From: a virus
Direction: 5' to 3' (one strand)
DNA length: 20,650 nt
IMG/VR virus record: IMGVR_UViG_3300031566_009621
Positions 1 to 16,463 of the stretch are shown here, piece after piece (the stretch's first letter is position 1; each line of letters opens with the position of its first letter). The position numbers and the translations under genes were made by a program. The notes beneath the pieces are model-generated. The model did not search any database. It saw only the letters and a program-made list of their open reading frames with translations, and was not told where the DNA came from.

Positions 1-61
1 TTTGCCGGCAGCCGGTTGGTGCAACACGTAGGAGACATTTGACGGAAGAAGGGACGCCATA

Positions 62-850
62 ATGCCGTCGACTGCGACGCTGTCACGCTGGCGGAGGACG
101 CCGGCAGACCTGAATTTCAAGGTTGACAAGAAGGACTATCGCGCCGAGTTCACGCTGAACCGCTTGTGCCGTGAGATCGACGAGGGTCGTGAGCTGGCGA
201 AACAAGATGAGCGGCACGACGCGATGCAGGAGCGTCGGATGAGCGCGAACATGTTCATATGTGAGTGGTGCAACGAGCGCATCACACACGTGGCAGATCC
301 GCTACGAGACGTGGCGCTCTGCATGATCTGCAAGAATAAGGGCATCACGCCGTACATGGTGCGCACGCATATTGTTGAGTCGTCCACGCCCCTTCCCGAG
401 CAGGAGGAGCAAGGCAGCTCGCTGGAAGAAGCGAAGTATAACGTCGCCAGGGCCGAGCAGGAGTTGGTCGACGCGCGCATCGACTTCGAGGCTGCGATAG
501 CGGCGATGGCTGCGGCCAAGACGCAGGACGAGACGGACGCCGGGCATGACGAAATGTCGCGGGCGCTGGAGCGAATCACCGCCGCGCAGGAAGCGGGCGA
601 CGCTGCGCTGTTGGCGTTCCGTGCAGCGCGAGTAGACGAACCGACGATGGCCGAGAAGGACACTGCAGGATTCAGAGGGAGCACCAGCGAGCTGGGGTTC
701 CACGAGGGCGCTGCGGGCTTCCGTCCAGAGGATCGCGGAGAGCCGCCGGGTGTGCCGCCGGGACAGCGCTTGGGGTTGCCAACCAAGGGCAACGACTACC
801 TGCATGACGGGTACCTGCATGACGGGCGTACGCCGGGGAACTGGGAGTAG
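62..850 (+). CDS. Hypothetical protein with a Cys-pair zinc-finger-like motif (CEWC...CMIC), a central Ala/Glu-rich predicted coiled coil, a Gly/Pro-rich C-terminus and a short terminal tandem repeat (DYLHDGYLHDG).
   Basis: 262-aa ORF. ATG at 62 is preceded by a purine-rich SD-like stretch (gaagaaggga). Same strand and codon style as its neighbours. Motifs read directly from the translation. Confidence 0.55.
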   Translation: MPSTATLSRWRRTPADLNFKVDKKDYRAEFTLNRLCREIDEGRELAKQDERHDAMQERRMSANMFICEWCNERITHVADPLRDVALCMICKNKGITPYMVRTHIVESSTPLPEQEEQGSSLEEAKYNVARAEQELVDARIDFEAAIAAMAAAKTQDETDAGHDEMSRALERITAAQEAGDAALLAFRAARVDEPTMAEKDTAGFRGSTSELGFHEGAAGFRPEDRGEPPGVPPGQRLGLPTKGNDYLHDGYLHDGRTPGNWE

Positions 851-851
851 T

Positions 852-1058
852 ATGGTTCATGGTGCTACGTTCGAATCACCGTACGGATTCGTCAAGATAG
901 TCACGAGCAAGGGGCCAAAGTGGTTCTGCAACAAGGGCAAGCTCTCCGCAGGGCCGTACGCCACCAAGTGGCTCGCCAAACGGCAGGGTCCGCGTGACAT
1001 CCTGAAAGTCGAGACCGACGCTGCTCAGGAAGACATCGCGGAGCCTGATGCATTGTGA
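852..1058 (+). CDS. Small hypothetical protein (68 aa).
   Basis: The internal ATG at 852 of the 750..1058 ORF lies 1 nt after the upstream TAG. A gggag SD sits just upstream. The downstream GTG start overlaps its TGA stop (GTGA). Confidence 0.45.
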   Translation: MVHGATFESPYGFVKIVTSKGPKWFCNKGKLSAGPYATKWLAKRQGPRDILKVETDAAQEDIAEPDAL

Positions 1059-1363
1059 GCACTGTACATCAGGGACCAGACGGGTTACGGATTATTCACG
1101 ATCCGGAGGGCAAGACGCTGGGTGACAGACTGTACGTCACGCGGGGTCAGAAGTGTGTTCCCTTCGGGAACGCACTCACCCTCAAGGCGCTCGGCGGTAT
1201 ACTTCTCACGCCAACGATGCGGGGTTGGCTCATGTCATTCCGCAGTCTCTACGCTAAGGTTGGCGGCAAGAGCACCAACACAACCGTCAGTTCATTCTGG
1301 AGCGATGAAAACTATCGCGAGTGGCGCCGTCGCCAGCAGGCGCAGAGACGGAGAGGGGGTTGA
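1055..1363 (+). CDS. Member 1 of a tandem paralogous small-protein family (GTG start). Shares the C-terminal W-[LIV]-R/M motif region (TPTMRGWLMSF) with members 2-7.
   Basis: GTG 1055 overlaps the upstream TGA. The translation aligns with the downstream paralogs around the Trp-containing motif. Confidence 0.45.
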   Translation: MSTVHQGPDGLRIIHDPEGKTLGDRLYVTRGQKCVPFGNALTLKALGGILLTPTMRGWLMSFRSLYAKVGGKSTNTTVSSFWSDENYREWRRRQQAQRRRGG

Positions 1364-1365
1364 TA

Positions 1366-1610
1366 TGACGTACGTGTTCACCCGTCAACTCTCGACGGGT
1401 GAGAATCTGATGTATGTGTACGACAACGAGGGCAGTAACGTCGAGGGTACGCGGCATTTCGTCACGTGCCGACAGTACACTGCGGCTCGTGGGGTTGTCA
1501 TAGACAACTACAGCATTGGCGGCATATCTCTCGGCGTAGCTACGATAGAGTGGGTGCGTTCGCACCTACGTCGCATCCTGGCGCATGAGACCAGCGGGCG
1601 GCCGCTATGA
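1366..1610 (+). CDS. Paralog family member 2 (81 aa): MTYVFTRQ...YVYDNEGSNVEGTRHF...IEWVRSHLRR.
   Basis: ATG 1366 lies 2 nt after the upstream TGA, with a strong SD (ggagaggggg). It aligns clearly with member 3 (MxxVF...M.YVFD.EG..V.GTRH...W[IV]R). Confidence 0.6.
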
Positions 1611-1852
1611 CGGTAGTGTTTGTATGCCCGATTGGCGGCGCCCTGGCGGGGATGATGTACGTGTTTGATTCCGAGGGACGTTCGGTCGACGGAACCCGGC
1701 ATTGGCTCACGTACCAGAATACTACGGCCCCTCGTCGTGACGTAGTGCGCAATATGCGTATTGGGAACACCGTTCTCACTGACGCTACGCGACAGTGGAT
1801 TCGTGTCTGTACGCGGCAAGTGCAGCAACGTATCGATGAGGGGGTGTTATAG
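1607..1852 (+). CDS. Paralog family member 3 (81 aa): MTVVFVC...MMYVFDSEGRSVDGTRHW...RQWIRVCTRQ.
   Basis: ATGA start/stop overlap at 1607-1610. Alignable with member 2 along its whole length. Confidence 0.6.
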   Translation: MTVVFVCPIGGALAGMMYVFDSEGRSVDGTRHWLTYQNTTAPRRDVVRNMRIGNTVLTDATRQWIRVCTRQVQQRIDEGVL

Positions 1853-2107
1853 GTGAGCACCGTATACGCGAGCGCCGAGTACCAGCTGATGCTGGTGTTC
1901 GACGAGGACGAGGAGCGTACACATACCAACGCCGTCAATCGCTACTACGTCATGGACTCACGCGGCTGCATTATGTCGTATGAGTCTGTGAGCTATCGGG
2001 GGATATTAGAGGGAATACGCCTGAGTGGCAGTCAAATGCGTTGGTTGCGTGAATGCAATCGCAAGCTGTCGGCTGAGTTGACCGCGCAGCGGGGATATGT
2101 GGCATGA
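1853..2107 (+). CDS. Paralog family member 4 (84 aa, GTG start): LMLVFDEDEERTHTNAV...SQMRWLRECNRK.
   Basis: GTG 1853 directly follows the TAG at 1850-1852. An SD (gaggggg) sits 8 nt upstream. It carries the family's VFD.E motif and the Q/M-R-W-L-R motif. Confidence 0.55.
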   Translation: MSTVYASAEYQLMLVFDEDEERTHTNAVNRYYVMDSRGCIMSYESVSYRGILEGIRLSGSQMRWLRECNRKLSAELTAQRGYVA

Positions 2108-2367
2108 CGCCACAGACAACAGTGTATGCGAGGGAAGGCATTATGCTCGTGTACGACGAGGCAGTACAGGTCGGCTACCCGGGCTACGTGGAGGGCGATA
2201 GCTACTACGTCGTGTACCGAGGACGAACGGCGCCCTACCACAATGCTGCGGAAGGCGCGTGTCGGGTCGAAGGCATTCTGGTACCGAGTCCTTTGGTTGA
2301 TTGGTTGCGCGACATGCATAGGCGTCTTTGCTCCTGGGTTAGCAGACGAGATGTGGGGACACTATGA
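2104..2367 (+). CDS. Paralog family member 5 (87 aa): IMLVYDEAVQVGYPGYVEGDSYYVV...SPLVDWLRDMHRR.
   Basis: ATGA overlap at 2104-2107. Shares the hydrophobic-V[FY]DE N-terminal motif and the DWLR C-terminal motif. Confidence 0.6.
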   Translation: MTPQTTVYAREGIMLVYDEAVQVGYPGYVEGDSYYVVYRGRTAPYHNAAEGACRVEGILVPSPLVDWLRDMHRRLCSWVSRRDVGTL

Positions 2368-2594
2368 GTGACGTTTGGGTACGAGACGACTTGACGGTCG
2401 TCTTCGATCGCGAGGCGCTGAGAGGGACGCACGACCGCTGCTTCGTTCGGGCGAGCCAGGATGCGGTGACGCGTGATATTCGCTCCGTGATAGACTTCGG
2501 ATGCATCGAGCAGCGTGTTCTGAGTCGCGCTGAAATCACTTGGCTCGGTGAGGTCAAGTCGGAAATTGTATACGCGATTGGACTACGAATATGA
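2364..2594 (+). CDS. Paralog family member 6 (76 aa): LTVVFDREALRGTHDRCFV...AEITWLGEVKSE.
   Basis: ATGA overlap at 2364-2367. Carries the VVFD-E..GTH motif shared with members 2 and 3. Confidence 0.6.
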   Translation: MSDVWVRDDLTVVFDREALRGTHDRCFVRASQDAVTRDIRSVIDFGCIEQRVLSRAEITWLGEVKSEIVYAIGLRI

Positions 2595-3934
2595 GCGAGA
2601 CACGCCATCACGGGCGCGTAACGCTCGTGCTCGATTCGGAAAGCGACAAGGCGGAAGATGCGGCGTACATCATGGTGGAGGGCGAGACGTACACAGCGCT
2701 CATCATCTTCCAGTACAATGGGGTTGTATCGGGCACGCCGCTAGTGCTCACACCGCACGAGATGGATTGGCTGCGAGAGCAGAGCAACGCCATCATCGCT
2801 GCGCGCGAGACGGTACTCGGCGAGCGGGATGTGATGGCTCACGTGTTCACTAGGCAGCGTCACTTCCGGGAGCCGCCAGTGGATCTGCCATCGGTCGAGT
2901 GGATTTTAAATCAGCAGCAGATAAGGAATCAGGCAGCTGCGGGCTTCGCGACTACGGCTGACACCACAACAACGGGGTTTGCACCAGCGGGTTCTCCTAC
3001 CGGGCGGATACAGACGGCCACGTCGAACGTTCTGCCGTTCGCGAACATCGACTACTCGCATCTAGAAGCGCGAATGGCTGAGGCAGCTATGCGGGCAGAG
3101 TCGCATGACGAGGAGTACGAGGACGACGACGTAGATGAGGACGAGATCAATGAGACGCGCCCGATACCGGGAGCTGTGCCGGGAAGTCCGGTGTATCGCT
3201 TCGATTTCGATCCGGGTATGCTCCAGGGGATCTCATCGGAGATACTAACGCCGGAGCAGGTAGAGGCCAATCGTGCAGCCGCTGAAGCTGCTCGACACAC
3301 ACGCGCAGCCCGGGCGGGCGACGCGGCTGATGCTGTGGCCTACGGGGTATCTCCTATAGTAGGAGCGATGCGCAGGGAAGCGATTTCGCGTCAGCTGTAC
3401 ACTACGTTACCGGCGCGCTTAGGCGCCATGCGCCCCCGCGTCGAGTTGACGCGTATGGAGCCCGGCGAGCGAATCGGAGTCTCTGTAGATCAGAACGGCG
3501 AAGCAGCCATTGTTAATGCTGCTGATCGACCGCTCGCGGTACCGCTTCCTGCCAATGATGAACAGCCGTTCGAATCAGCAGACCCGCCGGCCGGCATAGG
3601 CAACATAAACATACAGGCGGGTGAGGGAATGGAGGTGCATCAAGAGGGCAATCAGGTAACCATATCCCGGGCACCTGAGCACGTAGGCGTGCCGGATTAT
3701 TCCTCTCCGGCGGCTGTTCAAGCCTTCTGGCAGCGAACTACTGGAACCGCGTCTTTTGTCGACTACGCGCGGCAGCTGCTTGCTGAGACGCGTTCTGATG
3801 ACAACAGCAACGCAGCGCAGGCTACGCGACAGATTGGCGTGGATCTGGGGCTGACGCCGGATGTAGTCATAGAGGACGAGATTGTCGATACAGACGTCGG
3901 TGACCATGCCGACGAGGACTACGACGACTCGTAG
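2591..3934 (+). CDS. Paralog family member 7. The N-terminal ~90 aa is the family domain (VTLVLDSESD...TPHEMDWLREQSN). It is fused to a ~350-aa low-complexity, strongly acidic, probably disordered extension (HDEEYEDDDVDEDEINE ... DEDYDDS).
   Basis: ATGA overlap at 2591-2594. The N-terminus aligns with members 2-6. The acidic tail is read from the translation. Confidence 0.6.
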   Translation: MSETRHHGRVTLVLDSESDKAEDAAYIMVEGETYTALIIFQYNGVVSGTPLVLTPHEMDWLREQSNAIIAARETVLGERDVMAHVFTRQRHFREPPVDLPSVEWILNQQQIRNQAAAGFATTADTTTTGFAPAGSPTGRIQTATSNVLPFANIDYSHLEARMAEAAMRAESHDEEYEDDDVDEDEINETRPIPGAVPGSPVYRFDFDPGMLQGISSEILTPEQVEANRAAAEAARHTRAARAGDAADAVAYGVSPIVGAMRREAISRQLYTTLPARLGAMRPRVELTRMEPGERIGVSVDQNGEAAIVNAADRPLAVPLPANDEQPFESADPPAGIGNINIQAGEGMEVHQEGNQVTISRAPEHVGVPDYSSPAAVQAFWQRTTGTASFVDYARQLLAETRSDDNSNAAQATRQIGVDLGLTPDVVIEDEIVDTDVGDHADEDYDDS

Positions 3935-3972
3935 AAGTACGAACGCGTTCTTACTTCCTGAAAGGAGTCACG

Positions 3973-4242
3973 GTGCAGTTGACTGCAGAGATGTTGCTGG
4001 AGAAACTCCTCGACTTCGTCGAGGGACGCGAGAAGGAGCTGGCGACTCGGGATCAGACGGCACTCCCGGCTCTCCACGAGTATGGGGTCGCGAAGGCGTT
4101 CCTGTACAATCTTCTGGGCGAGACGAAGTCGTTTGCCGACAGGCGTACGCGGGGCTTCGCGGCGCCGGGCGCACGCGTCTTCGAGACGGCGAAGAAGGAG
4201 GAGTCGAATGCAGGTACAGGTGATGGGCCGCCCGTCGCCTGA
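3973..4242 (+). CDS. Hypothetical protein (89 aa, GTG start).
   Basis: aaggag SD at 3961-3966, 6 nt before GTG 3973. Overlaps the next gene by 35 nt in another frame. Confidence 0.45.
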   Translation: MQLTAEMLLEKLLDFVEGREKELATRDQTALPALHEYGVAKAFLYNLLGETKSFADRRTRGFAAPGARVFETAKKEESNAGTGDGPPVA

Positions 4243-4438
4243 GTTTCCGGTGGTCTGTTGGACCCCGGAGAAGCTGGAGCGGTTGCGAAAGCTGTATGAG
4301 GCTGAAAAGGACGAGGGACTCGATCATGTGATTGAGTTCGATGGCACGAAGATGCTCATCGCCTACACCAAGTACATGATTGAATACCTCACTAAGCGGT
4401 TCGAGGGTTGCTCTCAGTCGGAGAAGCCTGTAAACTAA
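4208..4438 (+). CDS. Hypothetical protein (76 aa): MQVQVMGRPSPEFPVVCW...
   Basis: Internal ATG at 4208 of ORF 4082..4438, preceded by an aaggagga SD. The upstream part of that ORF is Arg-rich junk in a GC-rich frame. Confidence 0.5.
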   Translation: MQVQVMGRPSPEFPVVCWTPEKLERLRKLYEAEKDEGLDHVIEFDGTKMLIAYTKYMIEYLTKRFEGCSQSEKPVN

Positions 4439-4469
4439 CGAGAACAGGAAACTTCGAACGGAGGGTAGC

Positions 4470-4685
4470 ATGCGCAGGTCGAGACTCACAAGGAATTCCC
4501 CGGTGAAAATCGTGAACGCGCCCAAGAACATGAAGCGGTTCAGTGGAAGGCGGGGACGAATCTTCGGCGTGCGCGGTCCGGACAAGACCTGGTGTGTCAC
4601 GTTCGACAAACCAGTTCTGCATAGAGGCAAGAAGGTCAAGTTCATGGTGTTCAGGCGTCACGAGCTTCAGAAATTGGAGGAGTAG
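4470..4685 (+). CDS. Small basic hypothetical protein (71 aa).
   Basis: ATG 4470 with a ggaggg SD. Compact Lys/Arg-rich sequence. Confidence 0.5.
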   Translation: MRRSRLTRNSPVKIVNAPKNMKRFSGRRGRIFGVRGPDKTWCVTFDKPVLHRGKKVKFMVFRRHELQKLEE

Positions 4686-4686
4686 C

Positions 4687-5016
4687 GTGGCGGGTCGATA
4701 CATTGACGTGGCTGTGAAGTTGGAGACTGCCGGAACGGTCGATCAACTCTACGTCCGGGATGGCGAGACGAGCAAGGACGCTGTCGAGCGCTATCTCAAG
4801 GACGACGAAGAGAAGTTGGCGGATGCGGATATCTGCCGCGTGGTCGAAGAGATTGACGCCAAGACCGTCAAGGTCTCCGATCTGATGGAGCTGCACCCGT
4901 CGGAGGAGACAAAGCAGTTGAACATCGACTACCCCAACGGCAACCCCTACGAGGAAGCCAGCGAGGGCGAGGCCGCGCCGGCTGAGGGTGCGATCGTGAC
5001 GGGCTTCAGCAGGTGA
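4687..5016 (+). CDS. Hypothetical acidic protein (109 aa, GTG start).
   Basis: GTG 4687 lies 1 nt after the TAG at 4683-4685. A ttggaggag SD sits upstream. The longer 4543 start would overlap the upstream gene in a frame with no SD. Confidence 0.45.
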   Translation: MAGRYIDVAVKLETAGTVDQLYVRDGETSKDAVERYLKDDEEKLADADICRVVEEIDAKTVKVSDLMELHPSEETKQLNIDYPNGNPYEEASEGEAAPAEGAIVTGFSR

Positions 5017-5246
5017 TCGTACCGACTCTCAAAGTCGGAGCTGAAATCTACACCGTGACCCCCCTGGCCGAAGGTCCGTGGGCGGTAGACGAAGTGACCG
5101 TGATCAATGATGACGGCGTTACGATCTGCTGTATCTCTACGGTCTACGACCAGGGGGTCATGTTTGTTAGTCGCGCCGACGCTTTCGTGGACCGAGCTGT
5201 TGCGTCTGCGGAGGCCGTCAGGCGCAACGAAAAGGAGCAGCCGTGA
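5013..5246 (+). CDS. Hypothetical protein (77 aa, GTG start).
   Basis: GTGA start/stop overlap at 5013-5016. Confidence 0.45.
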   Translation: MIVPTLKVGAEIYTVTPLAEGPWAVDEVTVINDDGVTICCISTVYDQGVMFVSRADAFVDRAVASAEAVRRNEKEQP

Positions 5247-5650
5247 TCACACAGTGGGAGATGTACTGGCTGACGAGGTGTGATAGCCTCAATGCATTCG
5301 TGTTTGGCATCGGCCTCACCATAGCAATCATAGGCGGCATCCTGCTCATCGCCTATCTCACCATCAAGGCGTGTACGGCGGGCAGCCCGTCGGAGTCCGA
5401 CAAGGCAGCGAACGCGATGGCGGGCAGGGTCTACAAGCCGATGTACTGGACGCTCGGCGCCGGCATGCTGTTACTGATGTTCAGCGTGTTCATCCCGACG
5501 ACCAAGGAGTACGCGGCTATCAAGGTCGTGCCCGCGCTCGCCAACGATACTCTGAAGGAGGATCTGGGCGAGATCTACACGCTGGCGAAGGAGTGGGCGA
5601 AAGACGAGCTGAAAGAGCTGAGTGCCGAGGTGAAGAAGCCGGAGGAGTAG
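5243..5650 (+). CDS. Membrane protein with two predicted TM helices (GIGLTIAIIGGILLIAYLTI and WTLGAGMLLLMFSVFIP).
   Basis: GTGA overlap at 5243-5246. Hydrophobic segments read from the translation. Confidence 0.5.
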   Translation: MITQWEMYWLTRCDSLNAFVFGIGLTIAIIGGILLIAYLTIKACTAGSPSESDKAANAMAGRVYKPMYWTLGAGMLLLMFSVFIPTTKEYAAIKVVPALANDTLKEDLGEIYTLAKEWAKDELKELSAEVKKPEE

Positions 5651-5651
5651 C

Positions 5652-5879
5652 ATGACTGGATGGTATGTGGCGTGCGTCTTGTACGTGCTGGGTGCGCTCT
5701 GGGTGCCGATAGCGATGGGCGTAGCGAGCCCTAGCGGTATGTGGGGCTACCCGGGCGAGTCATTCTGGAGGCGCTACGTACTGCCGATCTTCTTCGTCGT
5801 CGTGTGGCCCCTCGCGCTGGGCGTCGCGCTGATCGAGCTGTACATGAACAGCAGAAAACCGGGAGGACGGAAGAGATGA
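5652..5879 (+). CDS. Small membrane protein with two TM helices (75 aa).
   Basis: ATG 5652 with a ggaggag SD. YVACVLYVLGALWVPIAMGV and LPIFFVVVWPLALGVALI are hydrophobic. Confidence 0.5.
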   Translation: MTGWYVACVLYVLGALWVPIAMGVASPSGMWGYPGESFWRRYVLPIFFVVVWPLALGVALIELYMNSRKPGGRKR

Positions 5880-6376
5880 TGCGGGTCATTTGTATGATGG
5901 GACTTCCGCGTTCAGGGAAGTCGACGGTTTCACGAGTGCTGTCGATGCAGTTCGCGGCCCCGGTCGTCAACCGCGACAGCATCAGGCTCGCGCTGCACGG
6001 CGAGCGCTTTCTGAAGCCGGCGGAGCCGATGGTGCGCGTGCTGGCCAGAATCATGGTCGAGGCGCTTTTCAATGCGGGTCACGGCACGGTCATCGTCGAC
6101 GAGACGAACCTCAAGAGAGCGACGAGAGACTTCTGGCGTGACGGTCCGTGGGCGACGGAGTTTCTTCAGGTGCAGACGTCGAAGGAGCTGTGCATCGCGC
6201 GAGCGCAAGCGACGGACGACGAAGCGATCATGCCGGTCATACAGGCAATGGATGATTACGCCGAGCCGCTCGATGAGAGTGTCGAGCACGTCTCTGCGGT
6301 GCTCGCGGCGGAGTTCCCCGCGATCAAGGCGGCGTTGGAGCGGGCCACCAGTCAACAACCGGAAGGGGCTGAATGA
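5876..6376 (+). CDS. P-loop polynucleotide 5'-kinase domain protein, T4 Pnk N-terminal kinase domain-like, with no phosphatase domain. Walker A is GLPRSGKST; downstream motifs are NRDSIR and VIVDETNLKRATRDFW.
   Basis: ATGA overlap at 5876-5879. From my recollection of T4 Pnk (GCPGSGKST ... NINRDDYR ... VIISDTNLNPERRLAW), all three blocks are conserved in order and spacing. At 166 aa it is too short to include the HAD phosphatase. Confidence 0.65.
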   Translation: MMRVICMMGLPRSGKSTVSRVLSMQFAAPVVNRDSIRLALHGERFLKPAEPMVRVLARIMVEALFNAGHGTVIVDETNLKRATRDFWRDGPWATEFLQVQTSKELCIARAQATDDEAIMPVIQAMDDYAEPLDESVEHVSAVLAAEFPAIKAALERATSQQPEGAE

Positions 6377-6709: not shown

Positions 6710-7300
6710 GTGGCAAACAAGATTGCTACGTGCGAGATCAAAGGCGTAGCTCACCTCATCGTACACAATGGTCAGATGGCCGACCCGCTCAACGAGTGGG
6801 CGAAGGCGCTGAAGAAGGTGTCGGGCAAGCGCAACAAAACCGACGCCGACCACGAGAAGATGGCCGAGCTGGAGTTCCGGGGCGGCCTCTACCTCAATGC
6901 CGAGGGTAAGGCGATCATCCCCGGCAAGTGCATCGAGGGCATGCTCGTGAAGGGCGCCAACCACAGCAAGAGGGGCAAGGTCATCAAGAGCTTCGTGTTC
7001 ACGATGCTCGAAGAGTGGCCGCTCATCTACACCGGGCCGCATTCGGTGGACGAGCTGTGGGCGGACACCAAGTTCCGTCGGCGCGACCTTGTTGTAATCA
7101 AAGGCGCGCGGATCATGCGTACGCGCCCGACGTTCACAGACTGGAAGTTGAAGTTCGAGCTGTGCTTCGACGACACGGGCATCAATCCCGAGGCACTGCA
7201 GGAGATCCTCGAACTTGCTGGCCGCATCACTGGTCTCGGCGACTGGCGCCCCAAGCACGGGCGCTTCACTGTCGAGAAGTTCGACGTCAGAGACGCCTAG
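6710..7300 (+). CDS. Hypothetical protein (196 aa).
   Basis: GTG 6710 with a strong aaggagga SD 4 nt upstream. The competing minus-strand ORF 6626..7456 is Arg/Ala-rich low complexity and is judged an antisense artefact. Confidence 0.5.
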   Translation: MANKIATCEIKGVAHLIVHNGQMADPLNEWAKALKKVSGKRNKTDADHEKMAELEFRGGLYLNAEGKAIIPGKCIEGMLVKGANHSKRGKVIKSFVFTMLEEWPLIYTGPHSVDELWADTKFRRRDLVVIKGARIMRTRPTFTDWKLKFELCFDDTGINPEALQEILELAGRITGLGDWRPKHGRFTVEKFDVRDA

Positions 7301-8103: not shown

Positions 8104-9162
8104 ATGTTAGTATTTGCAGCCGATCTGCACCTGTCGCCAAACACGTGGGCGTCGCTGCCCGAACTGTGTGGTGACTCGTACAGCAGCTTGCGGCAAATTG
8201 TTGATTACTGTCTCAAGAAGAAGGCCGACGCGCTCATACTGGGCGGCGACGTCTTCGACAGGCGGAATCCCGACAGTGCGTCGGTAGCGGTCTTCATGGA
8301 TCAGATGCGGAAGCTACGCGCTGCCAGTATCCCCATATTTGCTATTCAGGGACAGCACGACCGCAGTGATCCGCCGTGGACACAGATCCACGGGGACTTG
8401 GGCATCATCCAGCTCGGCCCGCAGCCGTTCGTGGGGGTGCCGGTAGGGAACAAGACTTACAACATAGCAGGCTTCGACAATACGTCGGCGGCGAACGTGC
8501 AGGAAACGCTGAAGACTATTGAGGGAGCCGACATTGTCGTGTTGCACCAGTCACTCAAGGGCGTCATGGGGTTCGCCGACAAGTGGGATCTCGACGAGGC
8601 GTGGCTGCACGACAACGTGAAGCTGGGGCTTGTGGGAGACATCCACCTGCCCGTCAGCTCGGGGCGCTGTTACTACCCCGGCTCGACGCACATGTGCGCC
8701 ATCGACGAGCCGATTGAGAAGAGCTTCATCACGGTCGACGCAAAGCTCGCGGTCAAGCGAGTGAAGATGGATACACGTGAGGTGGTCGACCTGATGGTGG
8801 AGACAGAGGACGGGCTGACTGCAGCCATCGCTACGATCCGGCATTACAAGCCGAAGAGCAAGCGGTACCCGCGATCAATCATCTACGTGAGGCTCGCGCC
8901 GGATGTTCCTGGCGCGTATGACGCGCTCAAGACGGCGTGCGCGGAGGCCGAGCACTTCTTCATGCCGGCGACGCTGAAGGTGAGTGCTGAAGGTGAAGCA
9001 ACACAGGAGCGGTCGGTCGCAGCTACGAGTCTGGAGTCGTGTCTGGCGCAGGCCGTCGATCCGACTGAGGCTGCCGACGCATATGGCTTCATTCTACGGC
9101 TGCTCAAGGCGGAGAAGCCGGCGGACGAGCTGACAGACATCAAGAAAGAGATGGGCGTCTGA
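8104..9162 (+). CDS. sbcD: SbcD/Mre11-family metallophosphoesterase nuclease (phage gp47-like).
   Basis: The calcineurin-like phosphoesterase motifs appear in order: D-x-H (AADLHLS), GD-x-x-D (GGDVFDRRNP), GNHD-like (QGQHDRSD), H (VVLHQS) and GD-x-H (VGDIHLP). ATG 8104 has an aggtgaggg SD. It is paired with the downstream Rad50-like ATPase. Confidence 0.85.
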   Translation: MLVFAADLHLSPNTWASLPELCGDSYSSLRQIVDYCLKKKADALILGGDVFDRRNPDSASVAVFMDQMRKLRAASIPIFAIQGQHDRSDPPWTQIHGDLGIIQLGPQPFVGVPVGNKTYNIAGFDNTSAANVQETLKTIEGADIVVLHQSLKGVMGFADKWDLDEAWLHDNVKLGLVGDIHLPVSSGRCYYPGSTHMCAIDEPIEKSFITVDAKLAVKRVKMDTREVVDLMVETEDGLTAAIATIRHYKPKSKRYPRSIIYVRLAPDVPGAYDALKTACAEAEHFFMPATLKVSAEGEATQERSVAATSLESCLAQAVDPTEAADAYGFILRLLKAEKPADELTDIKKEMGV

Positions 9163-10588: not shown

Positions 10589-12715
10589 ATGCGTACACGT
10601 AGACTGGTGGCGAAGAACTTCTGCCAGCACAGAGAGCTGACGATCGATTTTCCGCCGGGGGTCAATATTCTTGGGATCCTCGGCGGCAACGGTCGCGGCA
10701 AGAGCAACGCCATCAAAGCAATTCGGTTTGCCATACTCGGCGAGTCGGGGAACGCTGGCGGCAAGGCTGACGATCTGAACTGGCAGGCGGCGGAGGCGAA
10801 GGAGACTGGTTTCGTCGAGTGGTTCTTCGAGCAAGCAGGTATCGAAGGTTCGGTGAAGCGCTACATCACAACGGCGCGAGCCAACATGGCGTTCGGTAAC
10901 ACGAAGCACAAGAGCGTCAGTGAAGTCAACGCCGAGATGCTGAAGATCGCTGGTGTCACGAAGAAGACGATCGAGGATGTCGTCTTCGTCATGCAGGGCG
11001 AGATCGAGAAGATCTTGTTCAAGCGGCCAGCCGAACGCGCGAAGGAGTTCCAGGGGCTGTTCGGGACTGAATCGGCGGAGAAGATTCGCGAGCTGCTGCA
11101 GAAGGAGATCGCTACGATCTCCACAGATCCGATCGATGAACGGATCGCAGAGCTGGAGAAGCGTATCTCCGAGGAGATTGATCCCGATCTTCGGAAGTTC
11201 AACGACGAGAAGGGGGAAGCCGAGACTCAGCTCAAGCTCATCGATCGAACTGCGGCGCAATCGATCAAGGACGCATACGAGCTTGCGCTCAAGCGCGCGC
11301 AGGAGATACAGGCGCTGCAGGAACGGGCGACCAAACTCCAGCGGGCTATCGGCGGTGCACAGCTTCCGCACTTCTCAGACGAACTGCAGCGGTTGATCGA
11401 TGCAATGGAAGCCAACCGTGTGGCGGCTGATGAGGCGAAGCAGAAGCTGGCCAACGTAACGGCAGCACGCCAGATCAGTACGTCGCGGGCGGCGTTCGAG
11501 AAGGAGCTGCAGGAGGCGACTTTTGTGTTGGAGACGCCGCCGCCGACAGTACCAGCAGTCACGCCGGAGCATGTCGAGACAGCGAAGAAGCAGGCGGCCG
11601 ACGCAGCTGCGGAGTTGGCCAATACCAAGACGTTCATTAAGGCGTTTGAGAGCGGCAACTCCACGTGCCCTACGTGTGGTACCGACTGGCCGAACGCAGC
11701 TGAGGCTGTTGAGGCGGCGCGCGCCACGCTACAAGAGCAGCAGGAGAACCTTGTCCAGGTGGAGTCGTTGATCGGCAGGGCGAGCGGTGAACTGGAGAAG
11801 TACAGGTTCGCTGTGCAGTCGCTGGTTGAGAAGCAGGAAGACGCGGCGACGCGTGCGGCTACGTTGCGCAGCACGCTGTCGCGTATGGGCGAGGCGCCGC
11901 AGGTGCAGGTCGACAACCTCGCAGCCTTGGAAGCGCAGGTCACTGAGTTCGATCGGCTCAAGAAGGCGATCGACGAGCGCGCGCCGAAGGTCAATGCACT
12001 GCAGGCGCAGGTCGCGGCATCGCAAGGCGAACTCAAGGCGCTCACGGCTCAGTTAGCCGCGCTGGAGAGCGAGCAGCCGCAGGGCTTGCTGCGTACGCAC
12101 TACGAAGAGGCGTTGCGGCAGTTGTCGGTTGCTGAGCAGTTGACGGCAGCGTTCGCTGAGTTGGGCGGCAAGTTGGGATTGCTTCATGAGCTACGGGCGC
12201 GCACGCTCGCAGAGCTGAGCACGCTACAGGGTCAGGCGAAGAACCTGAGCGAGCGCCGCAAGTACAAGGAACTGTGCGAGCAGGCGCGGGCAGTGCTGCA
12301 TCGTGACTGTCTGCCGCGTATGGTCACGCAGGCATATCTGAAGGTGCTCAACGTTGCCATCAACGACTACCTCATGTTGTTCAATGTGCCGTTCACCTGT
12401 CAGATCAAGGACGATCTCGATGTCGTGTGCTTCCCCGTGGGGGCGGGCGAGCGCAGCGCGGAGCGGCTGAGCGGCGGACAGAAGGTGATGCTTGGCATCG
12501 CGTTCAGGTTCGCGGTCTACAGTCTGTTCACACGCAACCTGGGCTTCATGGTTCTCGACGAGCCGACGAACATGCTCGACGACGACCACATCAGCTCAGT
12601 GTTGGACATCCTCGACTCGGTCAGGAAGTATGCGCACAGTACGGGCATGCAGCTGATCGTGATCACCCACGAGAAGCAGTTGGCGGGGGCGTTCGACTAC
12701 ACAGTGGTGGTGTAA
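10589..12715 (+). CDS. sbcC: SbcC/Rad50-family SMC-like ATPase (phage gp46-like) with a zinc-hook.
   Basis: Walker A GGNGRGKSN. A long Ala/Glu/Gln-rich coiled coil carries a central CPTCG hook. ABC signature LSGGQKVMLGIAF, Walker B FMVLDEPTNMLD and H-loop VITHEKQ are all present. Confidence 0.85.
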   Translation: MRTRRLVAKNFCQHRELTIDFPPGVNILGILGGNGRGKSNAIKAIRFAILGESGNAGGKADDLNWQAAEAKETGFVEWFFEQAGIEGSVKRYITTARANMAFGNTKHKSVSEVNAEMLKIAGVTKKTIEDVVFVMQGEIEKILFKRPAERAKEFQGLFGTESAEKIRELLQKEIATISTDPIDERIAELEKRISEEIDPDLRKFNDEKGEAETQLKLIDRTAAQSIKDAYELALKRAQEIQALQERATKLQRAIGGAQLPHFSDELQRLIDAMEANRVAADEAKQKLANVTAARQISTSRAAFEKELQEATFVLETPPPTVPAVTPEHVETAKKQAADAAAELANTKTFIKAFESGNSTCPTCGTDWPNAAEAVEAARATLQEQQENLVQVESLIGRASGELEKYRFAVQSLVEKQEDAATRAATLRSTLSRMGEAPQVQVDNLAALEAQVTEFDRLKKAIDERAPKVNALQAQVAASQGELKALTAQLAALESEQPQGLLRTHYEEALRQLSVAEQLTAAFAELGGKLGLLHELRARTLAELSTLQGQAKNLSERRKYKELCEQARAVLHRDCLPRMVTQAYLKVLNVAINDYLMLFNVPFTCQIKDDLDVVCFPVGAGERSAERLSGGQKVMLGIAFRFAVYSLFTRNLGFMVLDEPTNMLDDDHISSVLDILDSVRKYAHSTGMQLIVITHEKQLAGAFDYTVVV

Positions 12716-14627: not shown

Positions 14628-14716
14628 GGAAGACTACGCCTAATTGGTAAGGCAGCGGCTTGCTAAGCCGCCGTCGAGCAATCGACTTCGGGGTTCAAGT
14701 CCCCGGTCTTCCGCCA
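14628..14716 (+). tRNA. tRNA-Ser (anticodon GCT), class II long variable arm, CCA encoded.
   Basis: Acceptor ggaagac/gtcttcc pairs 7/7. Anticodon stem gcggc/gccgc with loop ttGCTaa. Long variable arm cgtcgagcaatcgacttcg. T-arm cgggg-ttcaagt-ccccg, then g-CCA. Confidence 0.75.
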
Positions 14717-14736
14717 GCTCTTTGACAACAGAATAT
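14717..14736 (+). promoter_or_regulatory. Copy 1 of the recurrent post-tRNA motif GCTCTTTGACAAC-A-GAATAT.
   Basis: Begins at the nucleotide after the encoded CCA. Contains a TTGACA hexamer and a TA-rich hexamer only 3 nt downstream. Confidence 0.35.
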
Positions 14737-14841
14737 CAGGTCGGGACTTGCCATGCCTGGGTGCCGCCCGGCTTGGCAGGGTCGGATGGGGCGCGGCTAG
14801 GCAATGCAGGGCAGGGGCCGCACCCCCCTAGTATCAATGAA

Positions 14842-14914
14842 CCGGGCGTAACTCAACTGGAAGAGGGCCGGATTTTTAATTCGGAGGTTGTGGGTTCGAG
14901 CCCCACCGCCCGGA
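14842..14914 (+). tRNA. tRNA-Lys (anticodon TTT), no encoded CCA.
   Basis: Acceptor ccgggcg/cgcccgg pairs 7/7. Anticodon stem ccgga/ttcgg with loop ttTTTaa. T-arm gtggg-ttcgagc-cccac. Discriminator A. Confidence 0.8.
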
Positions 14915-14996
14915 GATTCTTCGGCAGTGCATGGCCGTGCATGATACGGTCTGGCTCCGCTCGGCTAGGCGCGGCAAGGCAAGTCAGGGGGCTCAT

Positions 14997-15158
14997 ATGC
15001 CGAAGTGGCGTAAGATCAACAAAGCGAAGCGGCATGATCCTTGGTGTCGCAACAACAACAGATGCTCAGCGTGTCGACGCTCGCGAACGTATCAGGGGCG
15101 CAAGGCACAGGCGGCGGCGGTCGACGCGTTGAAGGAGTACACCGCTGGGCGTGGCTAG
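14997..15158 (+). CDS. Small basic Cys-containing protein (53 aa): MPKWRKINKAKRHDPWCRNNNRCSACRRS...
   Basis: ATG 14997 with an aggggg SD. Short and low-confidence. Confidence 0.35.
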   Translation: MPKWRKINKAKRHDPWCRNNNRCSACRRSRTYQGRKAQAAAVDALKEYTAGRG

Positions 15159-15215
15159 CCATAGCGAGTCGGAGCAGGGATTGGCGTTGCACGTTAAGGC
15201 AGGGAAGGGGACGCC

Positions 15216-15401
15216 ATGAGCATCTGGCTGGTGTACCTCGGTCAGGAGGTCGAGGGCGTCGTGACGTTGATGGTCCATAGCGTGTGGCTGAATGAGGACG
15301 GCGCCAAGACGTGTTCCGAAGAGCTGGAAGAAGAGTACAAGGACAGCAAAACGAAATGGTCGGACTACGAGGAATTCGAGGTCGAAGACGCGGAGGGCTA
15401 G
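15216..15401 (+). CDS. Small acidic protein (61 aa). Its 3' end overlaps the first 10 nt of tRNA-Ser(CGA).
   Basis: ATG 15216 with a gaaggggacg SD. Stop TAG is at 15399-15401, inside the tRNA acceptor/D region. Confidence 0.45.
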   Translation: MSIWLVYLGQEVEGVVTLMVHSVWLNEDGAKTCSEELEEEYKDSKTKWSDYEEFEVEDAEG

Positions 15402-15482
15402 TCTAATTGGCAAGGCAGCTGTTTCGAATGCAGCCGGTCGTCGTGAGACGGCTTCGGGGTTCGAGTCCCCGGTCCTCCGCCA
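15392..15482 (+). tRNA. tRNA-Ser (anticodon CGA), class II, CCA encoded, followed by a T6 run.
   Basis: Acceptor ggagggc/gtcctcc pairs with one G-U. Anticodon stem gctgt/gcagc with loop ttCGAat. Long variable arm. T-arm cgggg-ttcgagt-ccccg, then g-CCA-tttttt. Confidence 0.75.
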
Positions 15483-15503
15483 TTTTTTCACGGAGAGGGA
15501 GCG

Positions 15504-15782
15504 ATGAAGCGAGTCACGAGCATCTGTGATTTCTGCGGGAAGGAAAGCGCCGTCGATCCGAACAACCGGTATGACGACGACGCGCCGGAAGATTGGCACG
15601 AGGACTGGCCGATCACCGTATGTCCGGACTGCGCGGCGAAGCATACGATCGCCGAGTTGAAGGCGAAGATGGCCGCGCGCAACGCCGAGCTGGATGCGGA
15701 GCGCGAGGTTGCGATTGCGGCTGAAGAAGAGAAGGAGCGTGCCGCAGAGGAGAAGCGGCGCGCCGAAAAGGAGCTGCCGTAG
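15504..15782 (+). CDS. Zinc-ribbon protein (CDFCG...CPDCA) with an Ala/Glu/Lys/Arg-rich coiled-coil tail.
   Basis: ggagaggga SD before ATG 15504. Two CxxC pairs. Confidence 0.55.
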   Translation: MKRVTSICDFCGKESAVDPNNRYDDDAPEDWHEDWPITVCPDCAAKHTIAELKAKMAARNAELDAEREVAIAAEEEKERAAEEKRRAEKELP

Positions 15783-15855
15783 GGCTAGCCCCGCCGAGGC
15801 TGGGCGAGCAATGGCGAGCTATGGCGTCGCTAGATTTGGTCAGGCAAGGGACGAC

Positions 15856-15942
15856 GGCGGGTGAACCGGACAGGCGAGCCGGGGCGGGCTTGAACCCCGC
15901 GCGCACCATCGGTGTGGGGATCGAGACCTCCGCCCGCCGCCA
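15856..15942 (+). tRNA. Candidate divergent tRNA-Ser (anticodon TGA), class II, CCA encoded, with an atypical T-loop (ATCGAGA).
   Basis: Acceptor ggcgggt/gcccgcc pairs 7/7 with one G-U. D-stem ccgg/ccgg. Perfect anticodon stem gcggg/cccgc with loop ctTGAac (T33, A37). Variable-arm helix gcacc-atc-ggtgt. Ends g-CCA. Weak T-arm: tgggg/cctcc has one mismatch and position 54 is A. With the GCT, CGA and GGA genes it would complete a full serine decoding set. Confidence 0.45.
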
Positions 15943-15959
15943 CTACGAGAGGAGAGTGC

Positions 15960-16463
15960 ATGGGCCGTCGATTCAACTTGAGGGATTTGCGTACCCGGAC
16001 AGCGTGTCCGGATGCGCCGCCGGTGTGGAGTAGGGCACGGTACGGCGAGGTGATGAACAAGAATGACTATCACGCTCGTCTGATCGTGAGAGTTGTGCCG
16101 AACTTCTGGAAGCTGTGGATCGACGCATGCTTCCTGGCACTGGACGCGGCAAAGCGACGGACGGTCATGCGGCGACGACGACCGACCGAGCTGCCGCCGG
16201 CGTACCGGCGGCACCCCGACACCTACTACGAGTTCTTCGGAGCCAAATGGGTGGCGGAGTACATCAGGTGGAGTTACTTCGTCGGGCATGTCACTGACGT
16301 GAACGACGAATACACGGCGCCGAACAACTGCGTGTCGTACTGGGCGCGGCTGTCGGTGAAAGAGAATCCCGAATGGGATCCGTACATCAGCTTCAGGCGC
16401 GTGGCGCTGGATCACGGGCGGACAGCTGGGCTCATCGCGGCTGGAACGCTGCCGACGCCATGA
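15960..16463 (+). CDS. Hypothetical protein (167 aa).
   Basis: Strong gagaggagag SD before ATG 15960. The upstream extension to 15912 overlaps the tRNA candidate. Confidence 0.55.
   Translation: MGRRFNLRDLRTRTACPDAPPVWSRARYGEVMNKNDYHARLIVRVVPNFWKLWIDACFLALDAAKRRTVMRRRRPTELPPAYRRHPDTYYEFFGAKWVAEYIRWSYFVGHVTDVNDEYTAPNNCVSYWARLSVKENPEWDPYISFRRVALDHGRTAGLIAAGTLPTP

Follow-up and report, generated by a model that had tools for sequence, protein, structure and literature searches.

How did seven small genes come to stand in a row on one strand of a viral sequence, do they form a single family, and what might they do? These questions are raised by IMG/VR record IMGVR_UViG_3300031566_009621, a stretch of 20,650 nucleotides (nt) that we refer to as the window. 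Seven consecutive open reading frames (ORFs), P1–P7, span positions 1055–3934 on the + strand, and a first-pass annotation had described them as a tandem family of diverged paralogs of about 80 amino acids (aa). Profile comparisons bear this description out and show the predicted genes to be true paralogs of one ~75–80-aa domain, duplicated in tandem. The array consists of the following ORFs, given with the score of each copy against a profile built from the other six:

1055–1363, + strand: P1, paralog 1, 102 aa; GTG start; 26.9 bits, 0/1000 shuffles reaching this score.
1365–1610, + strand: P2, paralog 2, 81 aa; ATG start, good Shine-Dalgarno GGAGAGGGGG upstream; 56.9 bits.
1607–1852, + strand: P3, paralog 3, 81 aa; ATG start with ATGA overlap; 44.5 bits.
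1853–2107, + strand: P4, paralog 4, 84 aa; GTG start, GAGGGGG upstream; 43.1 bits.
2104–2367, + strand: P5, paralog 5, 87 aa; ATG start with ATGA overlap; 32.0 bits.
2364–2594, + strand: P6, paralog 6, 76 aa; ATG start with ATGA overlap; 28.4 bits.
2591–3934, + strand: P7, paralog 7 with a long tail, 447 aa; ATG start with ATGA overlap.
2591–2836, + strand: N-terminal domain of P7, residues 1–82; 18.7 bits, 0/1000 shuffles.

In these leave-one-out comparisons each left-out copy scored between 18.7 and 56.9 bits against a shuffle maximum of 11.1, and none of 1,000 shuffles reached the real score; the family thus passed the profile-versus-shuffle check that the first-pass annotation had itself named. 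When the full profile was run against 405 six-frame segments of the window, only P1–P7 matched (next best E = 0.82). The 7.8 kb that public contigs add upstream held no further family member, and BLASTP among 51 genes over ~28 kb found no other pair of paralogs.

The copies have diverged widely, with pairwise identities of 16–38%. The closest are neighbours, P2–P3 (38–40% identity) and P4–P5 (32–33%), and in-register DNA relics join P4 to P5 (1938–1957 and 2198–2217) and P5 to P7; by a Mantel test, similarity between copies did not depend significantly on how far apart they lie in the array (812/5040 permutations). Two residues are invariant in all copies, an Asp that closes the second strand and a Trp within the final helix. 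The motifs by which the family had originally been recognized hold in part: V-[FY]-D, the Glu at +2 and W-[LIV]-R each occur in five of the seven copies, and T-[RH] is confined to P2 and P3. Conservation of a catalytic type is absent, and what the copies have in common is a hydrophobic core plus the invariant Asp and Trp.

An AlphaFold2 model of P2, run on an alignment of the seven paralogs only, reached a predicted local distance difference test (pLDDT) score of 90.5 and a predicted template modelling score of 0.78. Its elements are strands at residues 2–8, 14–20, 31–35 and 38–41, a helix at 42–48, two very short strands and a helix at 58–77. An independent run on full-length P7 gave the same topology, with pLDDT ~90 over residues 1–70. 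Foldseek found no significant structural neighbour in the PDB (best E 1.4) or in BFVD (best E 0.16); the top matches, which were not significant, were SsgA-like and whirly-type domains (PDB 3cm1 and 2gia). On this common scaffold, net charge differs greatly between copies, the isoelectric point (pI) running 10.9, 8.0, 9.5, 5.8, 6.0, 5.3 and 4.4 from P1 to P7. P1, the most basic copy, has an Arg-rich C-terminal tail (…REWRRRQQAQRRRGG) beyond its domain.

The reading frames of the array are backed by GC content at codon positions, low at the second (GC2) and high at the third (GC3), a pattern that is lost in shifted frames; GC3 is 0.61–0.69 in P1–P6 versus 0.76–0.87 in core genes of the window. 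No competing minus-strand ORF over the array has any support. Six of the seven starts lie where the first-pass annotation had placed them, and P2 begins at 1365 rather than 1366. The junctions comprise four ATGA overlaps (at 1607, 2104, 2364 and 2591), the GTGA by which the P1 start at 1055 overlaps the stop of an upstream 68-aa ORF, the TGAtATG between P1 and P2, and the P3/P4 junction, where TAG is followed directly by GTG and the genes abut without overlap. Overlapping junctions are common all along the window and are therefore a property of this genome, not something special to the array; from the overlaps alone, we infer putative translational coupling of the array genes. No terminator-like site was found in positions 1–6000, which, together with the overlapping junctions, makes it plausible that the array would be read as one transcription unit; promoter-like sites in the same region were no more numerous than in shuffled sequence. 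The early-region setting suggested by the first-pass annotation gains no support from these signals. The array contains no Rfam family.

Gene starts differ between public annotations. On most contigs (L001–L009), P4 and P5 are called from internal ATGs, giving 72 and 74 aa, and on L010 the upstream starts are used (84 and 87 aa). The internal start of P5 has a good Shine-Dalgarno sequence (GAGGGAAGG). Since the first strand consists of the conserved N-terminal motif M-[ST]-x-V-[FYWH], the long forms of P4 and P5 are favoured, alongside which both genes may have dual starts.

Relatives of the family are few. Scans of the seven copies against Pfam, PHROG, NCBIfam and PADLOC gave no match, nor did a sequence-profile search of the PDB with E values up to 10. 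Two profiles, run as word-indexed searches over 5.8 billion proteins, retrieved nothing beyond the copies, their strain variants and one other protein, P0009. An exhaustive hidden Markov model (HMM) search of 1.84 billion representative proteins returned the seven copies, a deletion variant of P7, P0009, P0010 and P0014; three further matches (P0011–P0013) were repeat-protein artefacts. P0009 and P0010 are orthologs of P6 in two related phages (39–42% identity), and P0014 is a P7 ortholog of 197 aa. The relatives are represented by two short, low-coverage contigs, of which L011 runs from the end of P5 through the whole of P6 into P7, and L012 from the end of P5 through P6 and P7 into the gene that follows, both with the gene order seen in the window. 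Across the first 282 positions of L011 (coverage ~0.9x), the P5 ortholog aligns in its C-terminal half alone, the N-terminal half being Arg/Ala-rich in every frame; misassembly, a frameshift or real divergence may explain this mismatch.

Other routes led to no additional relative. None emerged from a profile-pattern search of IMG/VR and JGI contigs, and megablast found nothing matching the whole window among 50,697 phage records. No family member is encoded in 160 loci around homologs of the neighbouring gene phrog_4652, of which the closest of those compared (L095) has no synteny with the window, or in two 40-kb regions of the huge phages LR756500/501. Nothing directly relevant was found in the literature on comparable arrays. 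As far as sequence searches reach, the family is new to every library searched and is lineage-restricted, appearing in three lineages among the 1.84 billion representatives.

The array can also be followed through a near-identical population of at least ten contigs (99.7–99.97% identity) from JGI, ENA and SRA samples, which carry the same copies as far as each contig reaches. All seven copies are present in 8/8 contigs that reach the end of P6, and all reading frames are intact wherever they are covered. The P5-P6-P7 order is kept in the two relatives, so the array is older than the split of these phages. Ortholog pairs are 39–70% identical, with ratios of non-synonymous to synonymous substitution rates (dN/dS) of 0.11–0.5, which indicates purifying selection; dS is near saturation in these comparisons, only two to three orthologs are available, and the proportion of synonymous differences is already saturated (0.65–0.75) in pairs at 39–50% identity. 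The only comparable neighbouring gene in L012, covered over 31 residues, appears strongly diverged too. Within the population, single-nucleotide polymorphisms in the domain regions are few: 3 non-synonymous and 3 synonymous in the contigs, plus 4 substitutions in protein variants. By these measures the array is old, with a stable number and order of copies and apparent purifying selection on each one; the rapid diversification that the first-pass annotation had supposed is not visible.

This history invites comparison with the 'genomic accordions' of poxviruses, such as the amplification of K3L reportedly described by Elde et al. in 2012. Like an accordion, the array consists of copies of one small gene arranged head to tail on the same strand, its most similar copies are adjacent (P2–P3 and P4–P5), and in-register relics of duplication survive in it. 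Accordions hold recent, near-identical copies in variable number, whereas the copies here are 16–38% identical, their number is fixed at seven, their arrangement predates the split from the relatives and no positive selection was seen. Neither copy-number variation nor dN/dS above 1, by which a recent accordion or arms race would be recognized, was found in the array.

P7 differs from the other copies in its length, and its sequence retains a record of how that length may have been gained. The features within P7 are as follows:

2818–2850, + strand: relic of an intergenic junction inside P7; a Shine-Dalgarno-like stretch, an out-of-frame TGA at 2832–2834, an ATG at 2834, then MAHVFT.
2837–3934, + strand: tail of P7, 365 aa, residues 83–447 plus the stop; mostly low pLDDT, net acidic.
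3080–3503, + strand: tail segment absent in variants, residues 164–304 (141 aa), through a 423-bp in-frame deletion.
3101–3175, + strand: acidic patch 1, residues 171–195, 48% Asp/Glu; a GACGAGGAC-type codon repeat, inside the deleted segment.
3851–3931, + strand: acidic C-terminal tip, residues 421–447, 44% Asp/Glu, ending …DHADEDYDDS.

The 33-nt junction between P1 and P2 (1349–1381) comprises a Shine-Dalgarno stretch, a stop, an ATG and the codons that begin MTYVFT. Nowhere in the window, on either strand, is it matched better than at 2818–2850 within P7 (25/33 positions; runner-up 20/33; top score among 300 Markov nulls 23/33). This relic lies exactly at the end of the domain, where …LGERDV gives way to MAHVFTRQ…, and the other copies stop 3–5 residues past the conserved Gly. 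Its placement suggests that P7 is copy 7 fused, through loss of a stop codon, to a once-separate downstream ORF, which from its sequence is best read as having had a P2-like start. P0014 also carries the fusion. A degenerate eighth domain at the start of the tail is hinted at by the profile, which aligns residues 82–89 and 101–109 to its two ends, in order and with negative scores; statistical support attaches only to the junction relic in the DNA.

The tail had been described as polyacidic and disordered. It is indeed a long extension, and it is probably disordered, with pLDDT below 50 at 283 of the 447 residues of P7, nearly all of them in the tail, where the alignment is shallow. 'Polyacidic' overstates its composition: it has 61 acidic versus 27 basic residues, 17% Asp+Glu and a net charge of about −34. 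Searched alone, the tail matched only itself and had no homolog outside this phage lineage, and the codon repeat of acidic patch 1 is the only DNA tandem repeat in the array.

Natural variants show which part of the tail can be lost. The 423-bp deletion is flanked by GA[GA]GCAGC microhomology and occurs in variants from several samples that are otherwise 99.7–99.97% identical (loci L003, L006, L009 and L010 in the tail comparison); L003 has in addition a 12-bp duplication, encoding the four residues FWQP, at about position 3720 of the window. Two contigs end exactly at the deletion breakpoint (3080), which suggests mixed populations within single samples. The acidic tip is kept in every deletion variant, and the distant ortholog P0014 likewise has an acidic end (…AVDDEEEP). 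Together, these comparisons argue against a rigid polyacidic DNA mimic and liken the tail rather to a flexible arm whose acidic end is conserved. A folded domain followed by a disordered linker and an acidic C-terminal tip is the architecture of bacterial SSB and of phage T7 gp2.5. P7 resembles them in its folded N-domain, its long low-confidence linker, from which 141 aa can be lost, and the acidic tip found also in P0014; unlike theirs, its N-domain has no OB fold and is itself acidic (pI 4.6), so that the likeness is architectural only.

Every gene in the window points in the same direction. The source is most likely, judging by its genes, a large uncultivated phage; the window includes genes typical of phages, namely an SbcC-like gene (PHROG, 4.8e-47), phrog_4652 (1.6e-49) and a PNK-like gene (6.5e-15), and the eight tRNA genes and the huge-phage resemblance of a vault-protein-like gene point the same way. 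No capsid or terminase gene lies within the window, so another large mobile element remains the alternative. Upstream, the array is preceded by a 262-aa protein and then the 68-aa ORF; downstream lie small unknown genes, two small membrane proteins and a series of genes that includes a kinase, two nucleases, tRNAs and a vault-protein-like gene. The annotated neighbours are as follows:

62–850, + strand: 262-aa protein with a CxxC…CxxC zinc-ribbon-like motif, just 5′ of the array.
5876–6376, + strand: PNK-like AAA_33 kinase.
6710–7300, + strand: phrog_4652 protein, 196 aa, of unknown function (1.6e-49).
8104–9162, + strand: SbcD-like (Metallophos) gene.
10589–12715, + strand: SbcC-like (SMC_N/AAA_23) nuclease gene.
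14628–20284, + strand: cluster of eight tRNA genes (Ser ×3, Lys, Trp, Met ×2, Cys) with small ORFs interspersed; ARAGORN and Rfam agree on 8/8.
17038–19797, + strand: 919-aa major-vault-protein (MVP)-like protein (Pfam MVP_shoulder 2e-24, Vault_3 1.2e-7).

The 262-aa protein also has a coiled-coil match to GreA_GreB_N (E 0.012) that falls under the Pfam cut-off. Two unknown genes, of 157 and 303 aa, separate the SbcD-like and SbcC-like genes. The MVP-like protein is 41% identical, over 76–91% of its length, to unannotated regions of the uncultured huge phages LR756500/501/503 (462–735 kb); its listed GTG start at 17038 overlaps a tRNA-Met gene (16989–17065), so the true start is probably further downstream. 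Homologs of phrog_4652, at ~40–50% identity, are spread over more than 160 contigs, both viral and metagenomic, from a wide range of environments, making it a conserved phage gene near the orphan array. With the kinase and nucleases downstream as context, the array most likely sits in a non-structural region.

What, then, might the seven proteins do? Tentatively, we read them as co-expressed, non-enzymatic binding modules, each with a partner of its own, the partners most probably being host proteins. One compact domain, made up of four strands, a short helix, two mini-strands and a long C-terminal helix, was duplicated in tandem to give seven co-oriented genes that overlap or abut, and copy 7, best read as having lost its 3′ stop, became a longer protein by fusion to the next ORF. 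The seven proteins would be made together from one transcript, and each would bind a different partner. The P7 tail would serve as a flexible arm, tolerant of indels and conserved in its acidic tip. A common core in which only the Asp and Trp are invariant, combined with wide divergence in the remaining residues and in net charge (pI 10.9–4.4), fits binding modules on a scaffold rather than enzymes. Host proteins, bound during takeover or counter-defence, are held to be the likeliest partners because small, lineage-specific, non-structural phage proteins usually act in this way.

The array does resemble anti-CRISPR loci and anti-defence islands, being composed of ~80-aa database orphans that are co-oriented, tightly packed and outside the structural module. 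Anti-defence clusters usually bring together unrelated families and are flagged by a helix-turn-helix 'aca' regulator or by known anti-CRISPR (Acr) or anti-defence genes. By contrast, the array is a single family seven times over, and neither an aca-type marker nor a known family occurs among 10 neighbours.

Several observations weigh against the tentative reading of the array as host-binding modules. Its functional step is essentially a prior drawn from phage genes in general, and nothing at the locus supports, directly or by comparison, any partner, host interaction or anti-defence role. Pfam, PHROG and PADLOC searches of the array, and a check of the 10 neighbours for marker genes and known families, came back empty, and the anti-defence role proposed by the first-pass annotation accordingly stays a prior. 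No ortholog pair shows dN/dS above 1, which arms-race families often do, and there is no copy-number flux across the spanning population contigs. The coupling is read from overlaps that occur all over this genome, and the structural model was built on a seven-sequence alignment.

The same stability suits a different arrangement, in which the seven proteins would be paralogous subunits of one hetero-oligomeric phage assembly, made in fixed ratios, with the basic P1–P3 pairing with the acidic P4–P7. Overlapping and abutting genes favour co-translation, copy number is fixed in every spanning contig and order is fixed both there and in the relatives, each paralog is under apparent purifying selection, and pI declines from 10.9 in P1 to 4.4 in P7. 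However, overlaps are the rule in this genome and no hallmark of the array, and the structure searches gave no neighbour that forms hetero-rings; we consider this assembly unlikely. A bolder combination, to which we give a decidedly small chance, would make the domain a new fold family that acts either as an obligate hetero-oligomer, with the acidic P7 arm as a recruitment tether, or as a library of seven inhibitors, a new anti-defence superfamily of one clade of very large phages.

Another possibility is that the domains are small nucleic-acid binders, a reduced whirly/SsgA-like unit of four strands and a helix serving phage DNA or RNA replication, repair or the control of transcription. SsgA-like proteins occur as several paralogs per genome, and the array domain likewise has a four-strand sheet followed by a helix; P1–P3 are basic, P1 has its Arg-rich tail and DNA-repair genes lie a few kb downstream. 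Yet the array domain is about half the size and has no Pfam match to SsgA, Whirly or PurA/PUR, and four of the seven copies are acidic (pI 4.4–6.0), which is unfavourable for such binding. This role is improbable.

The first-pass annotation had itself suggested that the P7 tail might mimic DNA. In its full form, this proposal would have a polyacidic tail that blocks DNA-binding defence proteins, those of restriction among them, with the array serving as an anti-defence island. The phage origin and negative charge of P7 recall Ocr and ArdA, its tail includes two patches of 44–48% Asp/Glu within a net charge of about −34, and the acidic C-terminal end is conserved in P0014. Ocr and ArdA are rigid folded proteins whose entire surface is acidic, whereas the tail is acidic at only 17% of its residues and is not uniformly so, is not predicted to fold (the low-pLDDT residues of P7 lie nearly all within it) and loses residues 164–304, including the main acidic patch (patch 1), in natural variants from several samples, so that this patch is dispensable. 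P7 also has no Pfam match to Ocr or ArdA (0 families at E ≤ 1), and DNA mimicry is very unlikely. Least credible of all is that the copies are decaying duplicates or ORFs without current function, for although GC3 is lower in P1–P6 than in core genes and domain polymorphisms are non-synonymous about as often as synonymous (3 versus 3, plus the 4 substitutions in protein variants), the seven frames are intact in every contig covering them, orthologs persist at 39–70% identity with dN/dS below 0.5 and conserved order, and the prediction of a shared fold is confident.

Large viruses are already well known to carry tandem families of small accessory genes specific to their lineage, and on present evidence the array opens no new mechanism. 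Small genes without annotation abound in large uncultivated phages, and among them this array is a clean and statistically solid case. Two small evolutionary events can be read from it: a stop-loss fusion produced a long-tailed variant, and a natural in-frame deletion of 141 aa identifies a dispensable part of the tail. Its value will depend on what the proteins bind, and an orphan domain with a confident predicted fold and seven long-lived paralogs is a defined target for structural and interaction screens.

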